Counted from the first letter of the stretch, positions 2,038 through 56,525 are shown. The stretch: 64,000 nucleotides of DNA from an uncultured Chitinophagales bacterium (GCA_964422925.1 CAYRDC010000015.1:675-64674); one strand, 5' to 3'. The notes: generated from the letters alone by a model not told the origin. Numbers and translations: made by a program.

Positions 2038-3285
2038 ATGAAACAAATGCTGATTTTAGGAGGTGGGACGGGGGGGACCATAATGGCCAATAAATTTGCC
2101 AAAACCCTTGATCGCAGGGAATGGGAAATCACCGTAATTGACCGGGACCGGAATCACTATTACCAGCCCGGTTTTTTGTTTATCCCATTTGGAATTTATG
2201 GCAAGGACGATGTTGTAAAGCCAAAAGCCCGTTTTTTCACGCCTGAAGTAAACCTGTTGTTTGAGGAAGTCGAAAAAATTAAACCGGAAGAAAACCATAT
2301 AATACTGAAAAATGGCAAATCGGTTGCTTACGATATTCTGATCATTGCCACGGGGTCGAAAATCCAGCCTGAAGAAATCCCAGGGCTGAAAGATAAGCTT
2401 TGGAACAAAGATATTTTTAATTTCTATACGTATGAAGGTGCCCTGAAACTGGCCGAAAAATTCAGAAGGTGGGAAGGCGGCCGGCTGGTATTGAACGTGG
2501 CAGATATGCCCATTAAATGCCCGGTGGCCCCTCTGGAATTTGTATTCCTGGCCGATTGGTATTTCGATGAAGTGCGCCACATGCGCAACAAAGTGGAAAT
2601 TACTTATGTAACCCCGCTGGCCGGTGCTTTCACAAAGCCCAAGGCTACTAAAATGCTCAGCGGGTTGCTGGAAAAGAAAAACATTAATGTCATACCTGAT
2701 TTCTACCTGGAAAGGGTAGACAATGACCATAAAAAGCTGATTTCGTTTGACGAAAAAGAAGTGGAGTTTGATTTGTTGGTCAGTATACCGACTAACAAGG
2801 GGGATGATGTGATTGAACGTAGTGGGATGGGCGATGAGGATGAACTCAATTTTATCCCGACCGATAAGCACACCCTGCAATCGCCCGAGTATGAAAATGT
2901 GTTTGTGATCGGAGATGCCACCAATGTGCCTGCCTCCAAGGCGGGATCCGTAGTGCACTTTATGGCAGACATCCTTTATGAAAACGTGCTGAGTTATTTG
3001 GATGGCAGGCTATTGGAGGCCCGGTTTGACGGACATGCCAATTGTTTCATCGAAACCGGTTATGGAAAAGCGGCTCTTATAGATTTCAATTATGAAACCG
3101 AACCATTGCCCGGTAAGTATCCCCTGCCGGGTATAGGGCCGCTGGAATTGCTGGCCGAATCCAAAGCAAACCACTACGGTAAGCTGATGTTCCGCTGGTT
3201 GTACTGGCATATGCTGCTAAAAGACCGGCCCATTCCGATCGATTCCCATTTGTCCCTGGCTGGAAAAATTCTGGAAGATGCATGA
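2038..3285 (+). CDS. sqr: Sulfide:quinone oxidoreductase-like FAD oxidoreductase (probably type III)
   Basis: ILGGGTGG FAD motif, HYYQPGFLF, IIATGS, KCPVAPLEF and CFIETGYGKA cysteine motifs, VFVIGDA. Confidence 0.85.
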   Translation: MKQMLILGGGTGGTIMANKFAKTLDRREWEITVIDRDRNHYYQPGFLFIPFGIYGKDDVVKPKARFFTPEVNLLFEEVEKIKPEENHIILKNGKSVAYDILIIATGSKIQPEEIPGLKDKLWNKDIFNFYTYEGALKLAEKFRRWEGGRLVLNVADMPIKCPVAPLEFVFLADWYFDEVRHMRNKVEITYVTPLAGAFTKPKATKMLSGLLEKKNINVIPDFYLERVDNDHKKLISFDEKEVEFDLLVSIPTNKGDDVIERSGMGDEDELNFIPTDKHTLQSPEYENVFVIGDATNVPASKAGSVVHFMADILYENVLSYLDGRLLEARFDGHANCFIETGYGKAALIDFNYETEPLPGKYPLPGIGPLELLAESKANHYGKLMFRWLYWHMLLKDRPIPIDSHLSLAGKILEDA

Positions 3286-3997
3286 TGTAACTGCCATAAC
3301 CAATCATAAGGGCAGCGACCTGGGCAATCGGCTCGACCGCCTGGAACAAAAACTGGATACTATTCTTTTTGAAATCCAGCGGGAAAAAGCCCGGAATGAG
3401 TCGGCTGCCGATTTAGGTAAAGAGCTTTCTGTCGTTGCCAACGACCTGTTTCATTCCATAAGTGAAGAGCTTGACAAGCAGGGCGTGCAACTTTCTTTGA
3501 GCGATGTGAGCCGGTTGCTGATTGAGTTGATCCATAATCTTCCAGATATCATTGGATTACTCCGCTCGCTGGAAGAACTGAACGACCTATTGAAAGATGC
3601 CGGACCAATAGTCAATGATTTGTTCAAGTCAATGGTACCCAGACTGGATGAACTGGACCGGAAAGGATATTTTGAATTCTTCAGGGAAACAATTTCCATC
3701 ATCGATAATATCCTTTCCACATATTCAGCTAAAGATGTCAGGGAATTAGCTGACAATGTGGTAACAATACTGGAAACGGTGCGCAATATGACACAGCCGG
3801 ATATGCTTAAAGCAATGAACAATGGAATCCGGGTCTATAAGAACCTGGATACCCGCGACATACCGGAATATTCTCTTTGGAAAGCTTTACGTGAACTCAA
3901 CAGTCCTGAATTGAAGAAAGGCATTGGGTTCATGATTACTTTCCTGAAGAATATTGCCCGGGAAAGAGTAAATGGAGACGGAAAAAACATTACTTAA
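3278..3997 (+). CDS. DUF1641-domain protein
   Basis: Helical protein ending SLWKALRELNSPELKKGIGFMITFLKNI, the DUF1641-like C-terminal signature; overlaps the sqr stop by 8 nt. Confidence 0.75.
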   Translation: MHDVTAITNHKGSDLGNRLDRLEQKLDTILFEIQREKARNESAADLGKELSVVANDLFHSISEELDKQGVQLSLSDVSRLLIELIHNLPDIIGLLRSLEELNDLLKDAGPIVNDLFKSMVPRLDELDRKGYFEFFRETISIIDNILSTYSAKDVRELADNVVTILETVRNMTQPDMLKAMNNGIRVYKNLDTRDIPEYSLWKALRELNSPELKKGIGFMITFLKNIARERVNGDGKNIT

Positions 3998-48109: not shown

Positions 48110-49489
48110 ATGAACGCAGTGAAATACCAGGCTGGGGATACTATTGCCGCCATTGCTACGCCACCGGGCACCGGGGCCATCGGCATGGTGCGCCTGTCGG
48201 GGCCTGATGCCATCCGCCTGGCCGGAAGCGTATTCCGCGGGGCCGGACTCGAAAAGGCTCCCGGGTATTCCGCCCACTTCGGGCAGATTGTTGACGGGGA
48301 GCGCCTGCTGGACGAAGCAGTAGCCATCCTTTACCGGGCCCCGCGCTCCTATACCGGGGAAGATATGGTGGAATTCAGCTGCCACGGCTCACCCTATATC
48401 CTGCAGTCCGTGCTGCAACTGCTGTTGAGCAAGGGGGCCCGCCTGGCCGGTCCGGGAGAATTCACGATGCGCGCGTTCCTCAATGGCAAGCTCGACCTGA
48501 GCCAGGCCGAAGCCGTGGCCGACCTGATTGAGGCCCGGACGGAGGCCTCACACCGGGCAGCCATCAGCCAGATGCGGGGCGGTTATGCCAGCGAACTGCG
48601 TTCCTTGCGTGAAAAGCTGGTGCATTTTGCCTCCCTCGTGGAGCTGGAACTCGATTTCAGCGAAGAGGATGTAGAATTTGCCCAGCGCGACCAGCTGCTG
48701 GATACCGTCCGGCAGCTGAAGCAGGTCACTTCCCGCCTTATCAAGTCCTTTGCCCTCGGCAATGCCATCCGCGAGGGAGTGCCCACTGTCATTGCCGGTC
48801 GGCCCAATGCCGGGAAATCCACCCTGCTCAATGCCCTGTTGCGGGAAGAACGGGCCATCGTCTCCGAAATCCCGGGCACCACGCGCGATACCATCGAGGA
48901 AGTGCTGAACCTGCAGGGCATCCTCTTCCGGCTGATCGATACTGCCGGTCTGCGCGATGCGGCCGATGCCCTGGAAGCCATGGGCGTGCAGCGCACCCTC
49001 GAGAAAATCCACCAGTCGGCACTGGTGATCTATGTGTTTGACCCCATTGGCTCCACGCACCAGGACGTGGAGGAAGGGCTACGGCAGATCCCGGAGGGGG
49101 TGCCGGTGCTGCTGGCCGCCAGCAAATGCGACCTGACGGAAGCTGCGGAAGTGGTGGCGGACTTCAAAGGGCTGCCCAACCTGTTTGTGCTTTCCGGGAA
49201 AACCGGGGAGGGCCTGCAGGCCCTGGAGGAAGCCATGGTGCAGAGCATCATGAGCGAGGAAATCAGCCCGGAAAGCCCCATCGTGACCAGTCTGCGCCAT
49301 GCCGAAGCCCTGCAAAGGGCCCTGGCGGCCCTGCATGACGTGGAAGCCGGGCTGCAGGAAAAACGCTCGGGCGAGCTCCTGGCCCTCGACATCCGCGTGG
49401 CCCTGGACGCCCTGGGCACCATCACCGGGGAAGTGACTACCGATGACCTTCTGGAGAATATCTTTTCGAGGTTTTGTATCGGGAAGTAA
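48110..49489 (+). CDS. mnmE: tRNA modification GTPase MnmE
   Basis: TIAAIATPPG, YTGED, GRPNAGKS, GTTRD, DTAG, FSRFCIGK; ATG at 48110 follows a TAACTTTG box (48096-48103). Confidence 0.98.
   Translation: MNAVKYQAGDTIAAIATPPGTGAIGMVRLSGPDAIRLAGSVFRGAGLEKAPGYSAHFGQIVDGERLLDEAVAILYRAPRSYTGEDMVEFSCHGSPYILQSVLQLLLSKGARLAGPGEFTMRAFLNGKLDLSQAEAVADLIEARTEASHRAAISQMRGGYASELRSLREKLVHFASLVELELDFSEEDVEFAQRDQLLDTVRQLKQVTSRLIKSFALGNAIREGVPTVIAGRPNAGKSTLLNALLREERAIVSEIPGTTRDTIEEVLNLQGILFRLIDTAGLRDAADALEAMGVQRTLEKIHQSALVIYVFDPIGSTHQDVEEGLRQIPEGVPVLLAASKCDLTEAAEVVADFKGLPNLFVLSGKTGEGLQALEEAMVQSIMSEEISPESPIVTSLRHAEALQRALAALHDVEAGLQEKRSGELLALDIRVALDALGTITGEVTTDDLLENIFSRFCIGK
49377..49489 (+). repeat. Left copy (attL-like) of a 113-bp direct repeat = last 36 codons and stop of mnmE
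   Basis: 100 of 113 nt identical to 52971-53083 by manual alignment. Confidence 0.95.
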
Positions 49490-50055
49490 TTTTTAATACC
49501 CCTTCGTTTTATGCTGATTTCCAGAAATTTAACTGAAAGTGAAGGTTGCTCAGGGCCTTGAATATTATAACTTTATATGTAATCTAATTTAGTTTACAAG
49601 CAGGGGTCCCACCATTCAGAAACTTGAACAAGTCGATTTGTTGCTTTAGTTAACGAATAGTCCAGTCAAAAGCAGGAAGGATTTAAATTGTGTCAATTAC
49701 ATGATTGATGAATCACTGGTTTAAGTTGTAACCGTAAGCCGGAATATGGTTAATGGTCTGATTCTTCGCTCATCTTTACCACAAATGCATCAACAGCAGA
49801 GAAGGGAAGCGTGCAGATTCATACTTACGAATAAATGAATGATTTATTAATAAATGTGTTCTTTTATGAATGCTGTGGATTATTGGTTATTGGAAAAATA
49901 AACTATGTCAACAAAACTTATTGATTATGCAGGTTCTTAAAGATTTTACGTACAAATGACTGTATTATTTCCTTCCGTACATTTTAAAAGGATAAATTAC
50001 CGCATGATTGTGCGTCAGAAAAAAATATATTACAGGTCTATTGACTGAAACGATT

Positions 50056-51519
50056 ATGAAATGCTTGTTAAAATATGCGTTAGCGTTTCTTTCGCTTAAT
50101 TGTCCTTATAGCTTATATGCTCAGGCACCTGATACCTTATGGACGAAGACGATTGGAGGTGTGGATTGGGAATGGGGTAGATCAGTACAACAAACCATAA
50201 ATGGAGGATACATTGTAACAGGATGCACTTATTCTTTTGGAAATGGGGAAGGCGATATTTATCTGTTATATATAGATGCGACAGGAAAGATGCAATGGTC
50301 AAAAACTTTCGGAGGAGCTGATAATGATGAAGGTTATTCAGTGCAGCAGACTAGCGATGGTGGATTTATCATTGCAGGAAAGACATATTCTTATGGTGCA
50401 GGAAGTAGTGATATAATACTTCTCAAAACAGATGCAAATGGAGACTCGATTTGGGCAAGAACTTTTGGCGGTACTGATATGGATGAAGCTTACTCGGTAC
50501 AGCAGACAATGGATGGTGGATATATTCTTACAGGAATTACAATTTCGGATAGTACCGGCCTTAGTGATATTCTTCTCCTTAAGACAAACCCAAATGGAGA
50601 TTCTTTATGGGCAAAGACTTTTGGTGGAAATCAACTAGATATAGGCGAATCAGTACAGCAGACAGCCGATAGTGGATATATTATTGTAGGATACACTTTA
50701 TCCTATGGAGCAGGTGGTGATGTTTATATTATAAAGACAGATATTAATGGTGATACAATTTGGACAAAAATCTATGGTGATGTGTTTACTAATTACGGTA
50801 GATCAGTCCAGCAGACAACAGATAGCGGATATATCATCACAGGATATACAGATCCTTATTGGGGAACGACTTATGCGTTTCTTATAAAAACTGACGTTAA
50901 TGGCGATACAATATGGACTAAAAACTATCATAATGGCATGGGGATTGGTTCTTTTGTACAACAAACAACTGATGGTGGGTATATTATTGCAGGTTATAAT
51001 TGGAGATACGGGTTCAATAGTTATGATGTTTTTCTAATTAAAACAAATGCAATTGGTGATACAATTTGGACAAAGACAATAGGTGGTGCCGCTGATGATG
51101 GAAGCTATTCGATTCAACAAACAAATGATGAAGGCTATATTGTTACAGGTTGGACCAAATCTTATGGTGCAGGCAAACACGATGTCTATCTGATAAAGTT
51201 AAAACCTGAAAGCAATGGTATTGAAGAAGTGACAAACAATAATTTCGTTTTAATATCTAATCCTGAACCCAATCCCTTCTTTAATCGAACGACTATAAGA
51301 TATACATTGCAAAAACAGACTGATTTGAAGATAGATATTTATAATCTGACAGGACAGAAAATAAAAGAATTATTTTCCGGGAGGCAATATCCGGGTAGTT
51401 ATCAAATATGCTGGGATGGAACAGGAAATCGGGGGGAAAAACTTTCAAGTGGAATATATTTTTTGGTAATAAAAGAATTTAATAGCCAAACGAACAGGAA
51501 ACTATTACTATTAAGGTAA
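50056..51519 (+). CDS. Secreted seven-repeat beta-propeller protein with a FlgD-Ig / T9SS-type C-terminal domain
   Basis: Signal peptide; seven ~50-aa repeats W.KT.GG...SVQQT.DGGYI..G....G..D..L.K; C-terminal PNPF...IYNLTGQ...WDG...SSGIYF. Confidence 0.88.
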   Translation: MKCLLKYALAFLSLNCPYSLYAQAPDTLWTKTIGGVDWEWGRSVQQTINGGYIVTGCTYSFGNGEGDIYLLYIDATGKMQWSKTFGGADNDEGYSVQQTSDGGFIIAGKTYSYGAGSSDIILLKTDANGDSIWARTFGGTDMDEAYSVQQTMDGGYILTGITISDSTGLSDILLLKTNPNGDSLWAKTFGGNQLDIGESVQQTADSGYIIVGYTLSYGAGGDVYIIKTDINGDTIWTKIYGDVFTNYGRSVQQTTDSGYIITGYTDPYWGTTYAFLIKTDVNGDTIWTKNYHNGMGIGSFVQQTTDGGYIIAGYNWRYGFNSYDVFLIKTNAIGDTIWTKTIGGAADDGSYSIQQTNDEGYIVTGWTKSYGAGKHDVYLIKLKPESNGIEEVTNNNFVLISNPEPNPFFNRTTIRYTLQKQTDLKIDIYNLTGQKIKELFSGRQYPGSYQICWDGTGNRGEKLSSGIYFLVIKEFNSQTNRKLLLLR

Positions 51520-52033
51520 TTAAAAAAAACACATAGAAAAAACATGGATAAATTAAATCGATGGGATAGTTCACATGCAGTTTGAGGTCCTTGAGTGGAT
51601 TGCGTTCTATAGTGCCCCATGCGAAATATACATTGCAGATAGCAAAGTTCCGCGAGTGGTCTATTTTAGCACCGGTGTCCTGACGAGCCCTTTGGGCTGT
51701 CACGATGCTGATTATAGCGTCAGCATAACTTAAACCTTTCAATAATGGAAAGTTTGAAACTTTTCTAAATCAAAATAACAGGAAAACCATCAGCCCCCGA
51801 TAGGGATTTTAATTGATTTGGCATAAGTTACAAATGTAAGTCGGGATGTGGTTGTAGGTTTATCCCTCCGCACATTGCTACCGCAAAGATCAATAACAGC
51901 CGAAAATAGAAAGACCACATTAAGCGTAACTCCTGAGATATCCGTAATCAAGGTATTTGTTACTCGCAATATTTTTAAAATGTTTGCTTATATTGCAATT
52001 TCAAAGCGGGTCAATATTCCTTAATTTGTTGCG

Positions 52034-52567
52034 ATGAGAATTCTAATTTTTGCGACAATGATTGTGCTTACTGTTTTAGCAAGGTCTCAGCAGTTAGGCA
52101 ATCTTTATTTTGAAAATGAAAAAGTGGTTTACAGAAAAGTGTTTGAGGTAGATACGATTAATGCTGATGAATTACAAAAAATGCTTGAAAATCATCTAAT
52201 AAGAATACCTGCAGTAAAAGAATTACAATATATTGGGGAATTCATCGGAATCATTAATGGTATGTTTGTAGATGTAGATAAGTACTTAGGTAAACGATTG
52301 ACCTATTGGAGTGAATTATCAAAGCCAATGGATGCTAAGATGAAGATACAAGTAAAAAATGGACGATATAGGGTGATTATTGAGGAGATAAAGTTTATTA
52401 ATCCATCACCTTATTCTGTATTTTCATTAGACATAATTGCATCAGAAAGGAATCTTAAAACAACACTGAGCAGTAATTTCTATAAAAGGTCTTTAGGCTA
52501 TTTGGATCAGTTCCTAACAGATTTATTTACACTTAAGATTGAATCATTTAACCAGGATGACTGGTAA
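52034..52567 (+). CDS. Exported hypothetical protein (DUF4468-like by resemblance)
   Basis: Signal peptide, VVYRKVFEV, IQVKNGRYRVIIEEI. Confidence 0.7.
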   Translation: MRILIFATMIVLTVLARSQQLGNLYFENEKVVYRKVFEVDTINADELQKMLENHLIRIPAVKELQYIGEFIGIINGMFVDVDKYLGKRLTYWSELSKPMDAKMKIQVKNGRYRVIIEEIKFINPSPYSVFSLDIIASERNLKTTLSSNFYKRSLGYLDQFLTDLFTLKIESFNQDDW

Positions 52568-52707
52568 ATAGTGTAAATACATAGGATTATTATTCTAACC
52601 TTTTATATTTTCTGCTTTAGAATGCGCTTTAGTGAGTCGGCCTATATCTGGATCTTAAAAAGATAAAATTTAGTTAAATTGGATCCGGATCATTAAAAAA
52701 CACTAAC

Positions 52708-52887
52708 ATGAAAACTTTTTGTTGGGTCATCGCCTTATTAGGATCAATTGCTGCTGGGGCAGTATTTGTTGAAATGATGTCTGTGGCAACAAGTGCCCCA
52801 CAGGAAGCTGCTGGTGCAGCAATAGCAGTGGGTATTGCAATAATCCCTTATGTGCTAGCAAGAGCAGTTTCAGAACTAAGTAAGTGA
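52708..52887 (+). CDS. 59-aa two-TM membrane protein with a SAPQ.AA...IPY..AR motif
   Basis: Below the ORF-track cutoff. Manual translation: MKTFCWVIALLGSIAAGAVFVEMMSVATSAPQEAAGAAIAVGIAIIPYVLARAVSELSK; A-rich translation initiation region. Confidence 0.75.
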   Translation: MKTFCWVIALLGSIAAGAVFVEMMSVATSAPQEAAGAAIAVGIAIIPYVLARAVSELSK

Positions 52888-52970
52888 AATATAGAAATTC
52901 GTGTAAAGTAGGCCTGGCTTTTTATAGCCATATAAACTGATTTTTGGGAATAATGTATTGCTAATTTACA

Positions 52971-53083
52971 TCCTGTCCCTTGATATCCGCGTGGCCCTTG
53001 ACGCCCTGGGCACCATCACCGGGGAAGTCACCACCGATGACCTCCTCGAAAATATCTTTTCACGGTTTTGTATCTGGAAATAA
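52971..53083 (+). repeat. Right copy (attR-like): orphan mnmE 3' fragment
   Basis: Encodes [36 protein letters not shown] versus [36 protein letters not shown]. Confidence 0.95.
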
Positions 53084-53182
53084 TCCTCTGCGCATCCTGA
53101 CAAAAAGTTCATCCCGGAAAAGATGCTCAATGTGGGCTGTCGTTTAACCTTGATTTGCAGGTTTTTTTGGCAAAACTTGCAA

Positions 53183-53225
53183 TTTACTCAATGAGTTGAG
53201 TAAAATTACTCAGTGCTCTGAGTAA
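53183..53225. repeat. Tandem pair of palindromes TTACTCA-N6-TGAGTAA, 22-bp period
   Basis: TTTACTCAA-TGAG-TTGAGTAAA (53183-53204) and TTACTCAG-TGCT-CTGAGTAA (53206-53225). Confidence 0.9.
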
Positions 53226-53293
53226 AATGACCGGGTATTAAATCAGGGGCTTTTGCTTTTATCCTCAGCGTCTCCGTTTTTAACGGGAAAAGT

Positions 53294-53354
53294 GTAAATA
53301 TGTCGATTATGATCGACATATTTACGTAAATTTGTCGATTATGATCGACAGATT
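53294..53354 (+). promoter_or_regulatory. Tandem pair of palindromes TGTCGAT-TATG-ATCGACA (32-bp period) covering the -7 box TAAATTTG (53327-53334) and the ATG at 53341
   Basis: Identical 18-bp cores at 53301-53318 and 53333-53350; the first has perfect 14-bp arms (53294-53325). Confidence 0.8.
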
Positions 53355-54462
53355 AATCATTCCACGGATTATAAAATGGCTCTCTAAGGGCAAGATGATT
53401 CTGATTTTAGGCGCCCGGCAAGTCGGAAAAAGCACGTTGCTGAAACAACTGGAAGAAGCACTTCAGGAAAATGCTGTTTGGATTAATGGGGATAACCCGG
53501 AAGACAGGGCGCTTCTGCAAAATGTTAATTCCCGTACTGCGCAACAATTGTTCAAGCCGGGTCAATTGGTTTTTTTGGATGAAGTGCAGCGGATACCGAA
53601 TGCCGGTTTGTGCCTGAAAATTATTTACGATCACGTTAATGGAATCCGGTTGGTGGCTACTGGATCAAGTGCCCTTGAACTGACCGATCAAATCAAAGAA
53701 GCCTTAACCGGCAGGAAGATGGAATTCAGATTATTTCCGCTTTCTCTGGCGGAGTTGGAAACATGTATCTCCAAACTGGACTTAATCAAACAGCTGGAAA
53801 CCCGGATTTTGTTTGGGAATTATCCGGAGGTAATTAATAATCCCGGGGATGAGAAAGAAATATTATTACAGCTTGCCTCGGATTATTTGTTTAAAGATGT
53901 TTTTTCAATGATTGGTTTGAGAAAACCGCTTCAACTGGAAAAACTTGTGCAGGCAATTGCTTTACAAATAGGCAATCAGGTATCGAACCGGGAATTATCT
54001 CAGTTAACTGGTTTGGACAATGGAACAGTCGAGCGCTATTTAACACTCCTGGAAGAGGCATTTATCATTTTCAGGTTACCCTCGTTTGCCAGGAACCTGA
54101 GAAATGAGCTGAAACGGTCCAGAAAAATTTATTTTTATGATACCGGAATCAGAAATGCCTTGATTAATCGGTTTCAACCTTTTAATCTCAGAGATGATAT
54201 CGGAGTCCTTTGGGAAAACTTTTTTATTTCCGAGAGATTGAAAATGCACCATTATTCGGGCCGGTACGTCAATATGTATTTCTGGCGCACCCATCGTCAG
54301 CAGGAACTTGATCTTGTGGAAGAACAGGAAGGTAAACTTTCTGCTTTTGAGATAAAATGGAATCCGAAAGCGCGAAAAAGAATCCCGCATATATTTCAAA
54401 AATCATATCCGGAAGCAAATGTTCAATGGGTGCACCGGGAAAACTTTTGGCAATATTTTTAG
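53341..54462 (+). CDS. AAA_14 / DUF4143-like ATP-binding protein with a C-terminal PD-(D/E)xK-like motif
   Basis: GARQVGKS, FLDEVQ, ATGSS, LTGR, KIYFYDTG, LWENFF, QELDLVE...AFEIKW; spot GC 18/60 at 53881-53940. Confidence 0.88.
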   Translation: MIDRLIIPRIIKWLSKGKMILILGARQVGKSTLLKQLEEALQENAVWINGDNPEDRALLQNVNSRTAQQLFKPGQLVFLDEVQRIPNAGLCLKIIYDHVNGIRLVATGSSALELTDQIKEALTGRKMEFRLFPLSLAELETCISKLDLIKQLETRILFGNYPEVINNPGDEKEILLQLASDYLFKDVFSMIGLRKPLQLEKLVQAIALQIGNQVSNRELSQLTGLDNGTVERYLTLLEEAFIIFRLPSFARNLRNELKRSRKIYFYDTGIRNALINRFQPFNLRDDIGVLWENFFISERLKMHHYSGRYVNMYFWRTHRQQELDLVEEQEGKLSAFEIKWNPKARKRIPHIFQKSYPEANVQWVHRENFWQYF

Positions 54463-55913: not shown

Positions 55914-56525
55914 ATGGCCCAAAACCCCACCAAAGAAAAGCTTATCCGTGTAGCGGAAGCCGTGTTCCATGAAAAAGGGTTTGACGGGGCCAGGATGCGC
56001 GACATTGCCGAGCGGGCCAGCATCAATAAGGGATTGTTGCATTATTATTTCCGCACCAAGCAAAAATTGTTTGAGAAAGTTTTTGCACTGGCTTTCGGGA
56101 AGATGGCCGGCCGAATCAATGAAATTCTTGACCTGAACATTCCCCTGATTGACAAGCTTGAATTGTTCGTGGATCGTTACCTCGATTTCCTGGAAGCCCA
56201 TCCACATTTGCCTTTGTTCGTCATACACGAGCTCAACCGCAGGGGACACGATTTTCCGGCTGCCCTGCTTGCGGAGGTAAAGCGGCCTGCCGTGCAACAG
56301 TTTAGGCTGCAGATCAATGAGGCGGTTTCGGCCGGCATTATCAGGCCGGTGGACCCCGAACAGCTGATGGTTCACATCATCGGCATGTGCATTTTCCCCA
56401 TTGTCGCCAGCCCCATGATCCAGAACCTGATGGGCAAGTCGAAGGAAGAATTTGATAAACTCCTGGGGGACAGGCGGCAGGCGGTGAAACAATTTTTACG
56501 CATGGCATTATTGCCAGAAAACTAA
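55914..56525 (+). CDS. TetR/AcrR-family regulator
   Basis: AVFHEKGFDGARMRDIAERASINKGLLHYYFRTK. Confidence 0.95.
   Translation: MAQNPTKEKLIRVAEAVFHEKGFDGARMRDIAERASINKGLLHYYFRTKQKLFEKVFALAFGKMAGRINEILDLNIPLIDKLELFVDRYLDFLEAHPHLPLFVIHELNRRGHDFPAALLAEVKRPAVQQFRLQINEAVSAGIIRPVDPEQLMVHIIGMCIFPIVASPMIQNLMGKSKEEFDKLLGDRRQAVKQFLRMALLPEN

Follow-up and report, generated by a model that had tools for sequence, protein, structure and literature searches.

Here we describe a cassette of cargo genes, carrying no recognisable recombinase, that lies between two copies of the 3' end of mnmE, the gene for a tRNA-modification GTPase, in a 64,000-nt stretch of DNA from an uncultured Chitinophagales bacterium (GCA_964422925.1 CAYRDC010000015.1:675-64674; the whole stretch is hereafter called the window, and positions are counted from its first letter). 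The window cassette is one of a recurrent class of small recombinase-free cassettes at the mnmE 3' ends of Bacteroidota, a class that probably spreads by ordinary homologous recombination. For the window cassette itself, we infer a related lineage as the source and homologous recombination as the route, mnmE serving as the left arm and the tail remnant as the right one, a reading to which we give about an even chance of being correct.

The two copies of the gene end form a direct repeat of 113 nt with 89% identity (Table 1). Our own count over the 113 nt gives 13 mismatches, and the longest run identical in both copies is 29 nt (49406-49434 = 53000-53028). By the Nei-Gojobori method, 11.0 of the differences are synonymous and 2.0 non-synonymous (pS 0.395, pN 0.025, ratio 0.063), and the binomial probability of at least 11 synonymous differences among 13 is 1.5e-5. 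An initial annotation, made from the sequence alone, had reported the same repeat (113 bp, 13 mismatches, 11 synonymous, a 29-bp identical run) and had proposed that both copies were once functional and that one tail was imported from another lineage; the recount reproduced all of these figures, and the synonymous bias bears out the proposal. A target duplication decaying where it stands could not produce 11 synonymous changes among 13. One tail therefore derives from a different lineage, and each of the two evolved in its own lineage as the end of a working gene. What remains of the resident mnmE end is the distal copy. It closes with FCIWK and a stop codon where the proximal copy closes with FCIGK and a stop codon, and it is the displaced, decaying one because W replaces the conserved G of CIGK. 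This G is kept in 12 of 12 other translated tail copies, in line with the earlier view of the G-to-W change as later decay, and it agrees with a conserved 18-mer at the end of the gene, to which we return below.

The DNA between the copies has another composition, with 35% GC compared with 50.5% for the genome and 63% for mnmE. The GC content at third codon positions (GC3) is host-like in both tails (0.78 and 0.67) and 0.25-0.28 in the cargo. Tail and cargo thus have different histories, and judging from composition the foreign tail would not have travelled long with the cargo. Pfam finds no recombinase in the island, and tblastn with mnmE-linked proteins finds no remnant of an integrase, helix-turn-helix (HTH) or excisionase gene there, so that the earlier description of 3481 bp of AT-rich DNA with three cargo genes and no recombinase holds. 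The region contains no tRNA and no significant Rfam match, and the genome has no second copy of the island. Two known kinds of structure were considered and rejected. A diversity-generating retroelement would confine mismatches to adenines of its template repeat, but at the 13 sites the distal copy reads T, T, T, T, C, C, C, C, A, A, C, T and A, with no specificity for adenine, and Pfam finds no reverse transcriptase domain in the region; an integron cassette is contradicted by flanks that consist of mnmE coding sequence and by the lack of an integrase in the region.

The host genome is a 2.72-Mb, 96%-complete Chitinophagales metagenome-assembled genome from mat and vent samples, and the arrangement is contiguous in independent data. 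Two studies (microbial mat 2020, hydrothermal vent 2017) contribute four public runs in which flank and cargo occur together. In run X3, which comes from the other study and year, a 486-nt contig spans the left junction (49324-49809) and a 923-nt contig spans the whole distal copy with both its sides (52289-53211), each with 0 differences. In run X1, an 18.2-kb Logan contig extends from upstream of 48500 through the cargo to 53031 in the same order. Logan contigs of X1 meet inside the distal copy, overlapping by 22 nt at 53010-53031, although the two tail copies share no 30-mer, and this may reflect a minor recombinant variant. An empty site or a back-joint is present in no contig of the flank-bearing runs, contigs being prone to lose rare variants. 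An exact 29-mer scan of JGI metagenome contigs returned nothing, and a protein-guided scan returned only MnmE proteins at most 59% identical.

As a proxy for the ancestral empty site, we used a genome of the same family (G001) in which the hisS-PTP-mnmE synteny is kept. There, MnmE ends at 2847 and a TetR homologue with 48% identity follows at 3055-3645 (L002, tblastn), about 200 nt behind mnmE. In the window, 6.4 kb has built up behind mnmE, comprising the cassette, the displaced tail, an AAA_14/DUF4143 ATPase gene and the gene of an esterase of the type IX secretion system (T9SS). HisRS, PTP and MnmE are all about 58-60% identical to their G001 counterparts, which gives no support to an origin of MnmE from outside the family.

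We then searched 400 Chitinophagales genomes with the last 66 MnmE residues as the query. A second tail match was found in 16 genomes, and in seven of these both copies lie on one contig and strand, forming DNA repeats that end exactly at the stop codon. Such long-tail duplications amount to 7 of 360 Chitinophagales for mnmE versus 0 of 379 for the equally conserved C-terminus of YchF, for which the same search gave no genuine downstream duplication (Fisher's exact P = 0.006). Among 69 metagenomic mnmE loci, an independent set, three more long-tail cassettes were found, none with an integrase. Counting the window, 11 cassettes have both copies on the same contig (window, G053, G269, G168, G046, G356, G220, G321, L143, L179 and L184), and 11 of the 11 are without an integrase between the copies. 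Their repeats measure 41, 73, 75, 83, 113, ~125, 126, 130, 179, 233 and 235 nt, a scatter that argues against a single fixed crossover, and all of them end at the stop codon plus 1-3 nt. The cargo of the class consists of toxin-antitoxin, Abi, restriction-type or secreted-protein genes. In G321 (L029:2538-2683), the 73-nt tandem copy within the mnmE 3' end shifts the frame before CIGK, and this duplication may have arisen very recently or be an artefact of assembly. Tails of ~137-142 nt at contig starts in three further genomes (G209, G164, G311) were rejected as long duplications, being k=141 assembly overlaps; the overlaps do show a branch just after the mnmE stop, that is, polymorphism at this point. 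A seemingly isolated tail in G027 proved to be a contig end.

The same build occurs at other genes of the host genome. A genome-wide search for partial C-terminal duplications revealed one cassette behind dinB and another behind a deacetylase-like (VimE-like) DUF7033 gene, neither with a recombinase, and the mnmE, dinB and DUF7033 cassettes have no end motifs in common. Only two PF00589 matches exist in the genome, in frames of ~308 aa, the size of Xer. Two further tail-like matches were discarded, one on C24 as a false open reading frame (ORF) on a repeat protein and one on C10 as a diverged paralogue. All three anchor genes are composition outliers over their whole length (GC 0.62-0.63 and GC3 0.76-0.79, compared with genome means of 0.52 and 0.61); mnmE itself, with GC 0.628 and GC3 0.761, lies in the top 0.7% and 3.3% of the genome's long ORFs. 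The trend extends to core-like genes as a whole: where the 1 kb behind the stop is low in GC, GC3 is 0.689 versus 0.630 (P = 8e-5), and no such rise is seen in genes with low-GC DNA before their start. An effect confined to the 3' side would be expected if the upstream gene itself were the recombining arm.

Two other repeat-bearing regions came to our attention in this genome. One (G000:C41:5111-12058) is an array of low-GC lipoprotein-like gene pairs separated by 200-440-nt repeats, the pairs being distant paralogues (22-31%) of the dinB cassette cargo. In the other (G000:C5:524-6754), a 1205-aa ORF is followed by a 246-aa ORF with a common 225-nt segment (86%), which by eye resembles an Rhs-type orphan C-terminal module.

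Substitution patterns distinguish two kinds of tail pair. A synonymous bias like that in the window is also found in G269 (P = 7e-5), G168 (P = 1e-4), L179 (P = 4e-8) and the DUF7033 pair (P = 0.01). In G053 and G046, the tails are nearly identical and their differences unbiased (1 synonymous and 5 non-synonymous in G053). As far as sequence comparison can tell, the two kinds would fit birth of a cassette within a lineage, then transfer between lineages. The metagenomic cassette with a higBA pair (L179) is represented by ~20 contigs from many samples and allows a view of a population. In two lineages the cassette is 99.2% identical and its proximal tail 100%. Their distal tails differ at 1 site over the 46 nt nearest the cargo and at 15 over the other 134 nt, and continue into downstream flanks that are unrelated between the lineages. 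A different strain combines this cassette, distal tail and flank with an mnmE body that is 8.5% divergent and with another upstream gene, and yet another carries a diverged mnmE patch from -235 to -50; breakpoints fall within the mnmE body. Moreover, a single tail allele takes the proximal place in some strains and the distal place in others. Mosaicism of this kind fits the outcome that would be expected of homologous recombination through mnmE and the tail remnant.

The mnmE end is also the target of a large and very abundant family of site-specific elements, next to which the long-tail cassettes are the rarer class. In two genomes (G109 and G187), an HTH gene and the gene of a 380-aa tyrosine integrase lie behind the mnmE end; identity between the two integrases is 67%. 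A search with an alignment of these two, taking one genome per species, yielded more than 566 relatives in Chitinophagales, Cytophagales, Flavobacteriales, Bacteroidales and Sphingobacteriales. In 77 of the best 80 loci (labelled L044-L123), mnmE ends 0.6-0.9 kb upstream on the same strand. The layout is an HTH/excisionase-like gene plus an integrase of ~380 aa with Phage_int_SAM_5 and Phage_integrase domains (e.g., L050:3200-5140 and L112:2960-5143). Metagenomic mnmE loci have an integrase behind mnmE in 8 of 69 cases. On the same strand, 7-47 kb further downstream, the 18-mer TTYTGYATHGGNAARTAR is present once more (two more times in G410 and G411), and the elements are mostly 7-13 kb, some of them 41-48 kb. 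In alignments the family's repeat comprises the last 18-20 nt of mnmE only, with no similarity upstream of the core, and a second tail at the protein level is found in 0 of 14 genomes with integrase elements. Three 18-mers on one strand are present in G410 (C11:491113/499155/508662) and in G411 (C5:300576/269073/256264), which suggests tandem arrays at the mnmE end, as in Salmonella SGI1. On contig0033 of Nafulsella turpanensis ZLM-10 (L116:1-2283), a truncated mnmE tail of ~49 codons, with stop codons before it, directly precedes an HTH-integrase element; inserts of both kinds can thus be stacked.

The window island lacks the HTH plus integrase layout by Pfam, tblastn and blastn. At its left end the cassette does not resemble integrase-bearing mnmE elements, and blastn of the non-coding island parts against the 80 integrase-bearing mnmE loci gives nothing beyond chance. 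Its repeat is 113 nt long, not 18-20 nt, and only the 18-mer inside both tails is common to the two. Because the family repeats are 18-20 nt only and no sequence is otherwise shared, the island is not an evident relic of the integrase family. For the initial annotation, these results have mixed consequences. Its premise that mnmE 3' ends are integration sites extends to Bacteroidota, given the 77 of the best 80 loci just behind mnmE, and the survey of Bacteroidota mnmE loci that it suggested turned up both 3' duplications and linked tyrosine recombinases. Its statement that no such family has been described in Bacteroidota agrees with the searchable literature, in which trmE-targeting elements are gammaproteobacterial only, but the family exists, with its more than 566 relatives. 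Finally, it had left the choice between a relic of an mnmE-targeting family and a non-autonomous cassette moved in trans or by homologous recombination. The balance now leans to the cassette, moved by homologous recombination, while the 18-20-nt repeats and the lack of common sequence speak against the relic.

The island is a genuine insertion at the very end of mnmE. The data establish its structure and contiguity, the foreign origin of one tail, the lack of recombinases, the recurrence of the class and the hotspot; the route by recombination is inferred. The incoming DNA brought the working last 37 mnmE codons ahead of the cargo, from a related and equally GC-rich lineage. The imported tail now completes mnmE, and the resident tail, pushed 3.6 kb downstream, decays there. 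According to the homologous-recombination reading, a cassette lying between a full mnmE and a remnant of it would have both arms of a double crossover in one conserved gene. RecA would place DNA of the carrier lineage in any related genome, whatever lies downstream of mnmE, and the recipient's own tail would become the 3' part of the new remnant. This reading explains why no recombinase is present, why repeat lengths are scattered, why one genome has three such loci, why the foreign tail is host-like and why the anchors are GC-rich. Generalizing from it, we tentatively suggest, with rather less than even confidence, that Bacteroidota harbour recombinase-free "homology-armed" cassettes which carry a spare 3' end of a conserved gene and are moved by RecA between diverged lineages, whatever lies downstream, leaving a trail of displaced tails and GC3-enriched anchors.

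Other routes to the same structure have to be weighed. The cassette might be the ghost of a site-specific element of the e14/phage-21 type, with an attP carrying a substitute mnmE 3' end and its own tyrosine integrase acting inside the gene, at least ~113 nt from the stop, whose integrase module was later deleted while the cargo and both att sites were kept. We consider this unlikely, yet it has real merits. The architecture is that of e14 in E. coli, where icd extends into the prophage and icdC, a C-terminal pseudogene, lies at the far end (PMC13626634). Site-specific integration would be indifferent to the 11% tail divergence, mnmE is a proven integrase target, the addictive cargo of the sister cassettes (toxin-antitoxin, abortive infection, restriction-modification) is what would survive decay, and our sampling favoured small inserts. 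Nevertheless, an integrase or a recognisable remnant of one is found in 0 of the 11 cassettes, even where the tails are 97-98% identical, and some inserts (659-830 nt) consist wholly of two intact genes. The repeat lengths are spread over 41-235 nt, three such loci exist in a genome without any tyrosine recombinase of other than Xer size, and tblastn and blastn reveal no relic in the non-coding parts. Improbable in our judgement is a non-autonomous element, CIME-like or satellite-like, moved in trans through the 18-mer by the mnmE-specific integrase of Bacteroidota. The core is exact at 49472-49489 and has one mismatch at 53066-53083, the family is widespread and forms the three-core arrays of G410 and G411, and in Nafulsella a truncated long tail precedes an integrase element. 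Against it, the family's repeats of 18-20 nt leave the extra 95 nt of duplicated tail unaccounted for, none of the 14 integrase-element genomes has a second tail at the protein level, no cognate integrase is present in the 96%-complete host genome, and the dinB and DUF7033 cassettes go unexplained.

Two further possibilities carry very little weight. A target-site duplication, with copies identical at birth and differences accumulated in place, would be in keeping with the sister tails that are 97-98% identical and differ without bias, as in G053. For the window, the selected proximal copy would need ~10x the rate of the neutral distal copy (0.36 per synonymous site versus ~0.03 per site), which makes this origin highly improbable. 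The initial annotation had been wary of a misassembly of two strains at mnmE. The X1 Logan contigs do break inside the distal copy, with their overlap at 53010-53031, but contigs from independent metagenomes support both junctions: those of the other study span each of them with 0 differences, four runs hold flank and cargo together, and the independent 18.2-kb Logan contig has the same order. A chimera of two strains is therefore scarcely credible.

Several points weigh against the homologous-recombination reading. Recombination leaves unexplained how the first duplication arose in each cassette lineage, and RecA would recombine tails that are 11% divergent only inefficiently. The data searched contain no empty site, circle or donor, and every run that bears the flank also has the cargo; the genus is without another representative, and MnmE of the best relatives is 59-60% identical. 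The switch point in the higBA remnant rests on few sites (P ~0.03-0.06) and belongs to another organism, and the GC3 association has other possible causes. Furthermore, the search favoured small inserts on single contigs and could have missed larger, integrase-bearing long-tail elements.

Table 1 Features of the window and cassettes of the same build in the host genome and elsewhere
Feature	Position	Strand	Repeat	Description
mnmE (tRNA-modification GTPase), intact	48119..49489	+		Pfam TrmE_N, MMR_HSR1, MnmE_helical
Proximal repeat copy	49377..49489	+		working last 37 codons and stop of mnmE; end CIGK
18-mer core TTTTGTATCGGGAAGTAA	49472..49489	+		exact match to attachment core of the Bacteroidota mnmE-specific integrase family
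Cargo cassette	49490..52970	+		3481 nt, 35% GC, codon GC3 0.25-0.28
Non-coding left end of cassette	49490..50007	.		518 nt
Cargo gene 1	50008..51519	+		503 aa, beta-propeller repeat protein with T9SS C-terminal sorting domain (Pfam, NCBIfam)
Cargo gene 2	52034..52567	+		177 aa, orphan, signal-peptide-like N-terminus
Cargo gene 3	52708..52887	+		59 aa, hydrophobic, predicted small membrane protein
Distal repeat copy	52971..53083	+		displaced mnmE tail, 5' side cut off; end CIWK
Degenerate 18-mer core TTTTGTATCTGGAAATAA	53066..53083	+		1 mismatch to pattern
AAA_14/DUF4143 ATPase gene	53332..54462	+		41% GC, outside repeat pair; Pfam; PADLOC PDC-S01, E 5e-152
TetR-family gene	55914..56525	+		homologue directly behind mnmE in G001
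dinB cassette, host genome	C46 (G000:C46:237-3077)		118 nt, 90%	1.46 kb, 36% GC; two small lipoprotein-like ORFs
DUF7033 cassette, host genome	C25 (G000:C25:12125-15398)		112 nt, 94%	1.8 kb, 34% GC; one 424-aa ORF
mnmE cassette, G053			233 nt, 97%	8.5 kb between copies; type-ISP-like methylase and 1485-aa helicase protein
mnmE cassette, G269			235 nt, 88%	201-aa and 270-aa ORFs between copies; AbiEi/AbiEii-like pair (read by eye)
mnmE cassette, G168			126 nt, 90%	two small ORFs between copies; DUF433/DUF5615-type toxin-antitoxin pair (read by eye)
mnmE cassette, G046			130 nt, 98%	three ORF pieces between copies; frameshifted DUF1016-like nuclease (read by eye)
mnmE cassette, G356			~125 nt, 93%	distal copy with 1-nt deletion
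mnmE cassette, G220			83 nt, 73%	
mnmE cassette, G321			73 nt, 100%	perfect tandem duplication
mnmE cassette, metagenomic			41 nt	
mnmE cassette, metagenomic (L179)			179 nt	around higBA pair
mnmE cassette, metagenomic			75 nt	around cupin gene

The likely start of mnmE is near 48119; the open frame runs from 47930, and TrmE_N begins at residue 71 of that ORF. Cargo gene 1 has a probable start at 50056 and encodes about seven 52-aa repeats (~156 nt) of the delta-60/DUF5122 type, its best non-self homologue being ~50% identical. The orphan encoded by cargo gene 2 has no match in Pfam, PADLOC or NCBIfam, and among 5.8 billion proteins it finds only itself. Beyond the distal copy, the AAA_14/DUF4143 ATPase gene looks like a separate, older insert at the mnmE hotspot and, by its PDC-S01 match, is a candidate defence gene. 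Low-GC DNA extends past the distal copy to ~54480, with palindrome pairs at 53183-53354. Neither behind the ATPase gene nor elsewhere in the window is there a third mnmE tail or core.

Tail replacement at integration sites is already known, as is mnmE/trmE as a target in Proteobacteria. What appears new is that recombinase-free long-tail cassettes recur and occur at several genes of one genome, and that they coexist with a very large mnmE-specific integrase family of Bacteroidota for which a search of the accessible literature gave no description. If the recombination route is correct, defence, toxin-antitoxin and surface-protein cassettes could spread phylum-wide without a mobility gene of their own, by means of a spare conserved-gene end. 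Such cassettes would be invisible to island finders keyed to integrases, and displaced gene tails would offer a simple search signature. The mnmE stop codon is, in any case, a major integration hotspot of Bacteroidota, served by a common integrase family that acts on SGI1's 18-mer and is a potentially useful site-specific integration tool for this phylum.

Among known systems, the prophages e14 and phage 21 come close to the window cassette in that the insert lies in the 3' end of a housekeeping gene, a substitute end is supplied and the displaced end survives as a truncated pseudogene. The icd copies at e14 likewise differ mostly at synonymous sites. However, e14 encodes an integrase and excises site-specifically, whereas the window cassette and its 10 sisters are without a recombinase and have no fixed repeat length. 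The attB of SGI1 is the last 18 bp of thdF/trmE, where tandem arrays occur (PMC2297512). The integrase family of Bacteroidota targets the homologous 18-20 nt of the same gene; the window island, in contrast, has a 113-nt repeat and carries no integrase, excisionase or mobilisation genes. The cis-mobilizable elements (CIMEs) related to ICESt1/3 of Streptococcus thermophilus are flanked by att sites and have no recombination genes, and like the window island they contain nothing but cargo, enclosed by a duplicated attachment region at a conserved gene's 3' end. Yet CIMEs use the short att sites and the integrase of a cognate integrative and conjugative element, and the one integrase family found at the mnmE end has an att far shorter than the window repeats. 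In Neisseria, transformation and homologous recombination exchange cassettes known as minimal mobile elements, which lie between conserved genes. They resemble the class described here as small integrase-less cassettes at a fixed site, with strain-variable cargo and homologous recombination in the flanks as the proposed route, but they use two different flanking genes and no gene-end duplication, whereas in the window class both arms derive from one gene.

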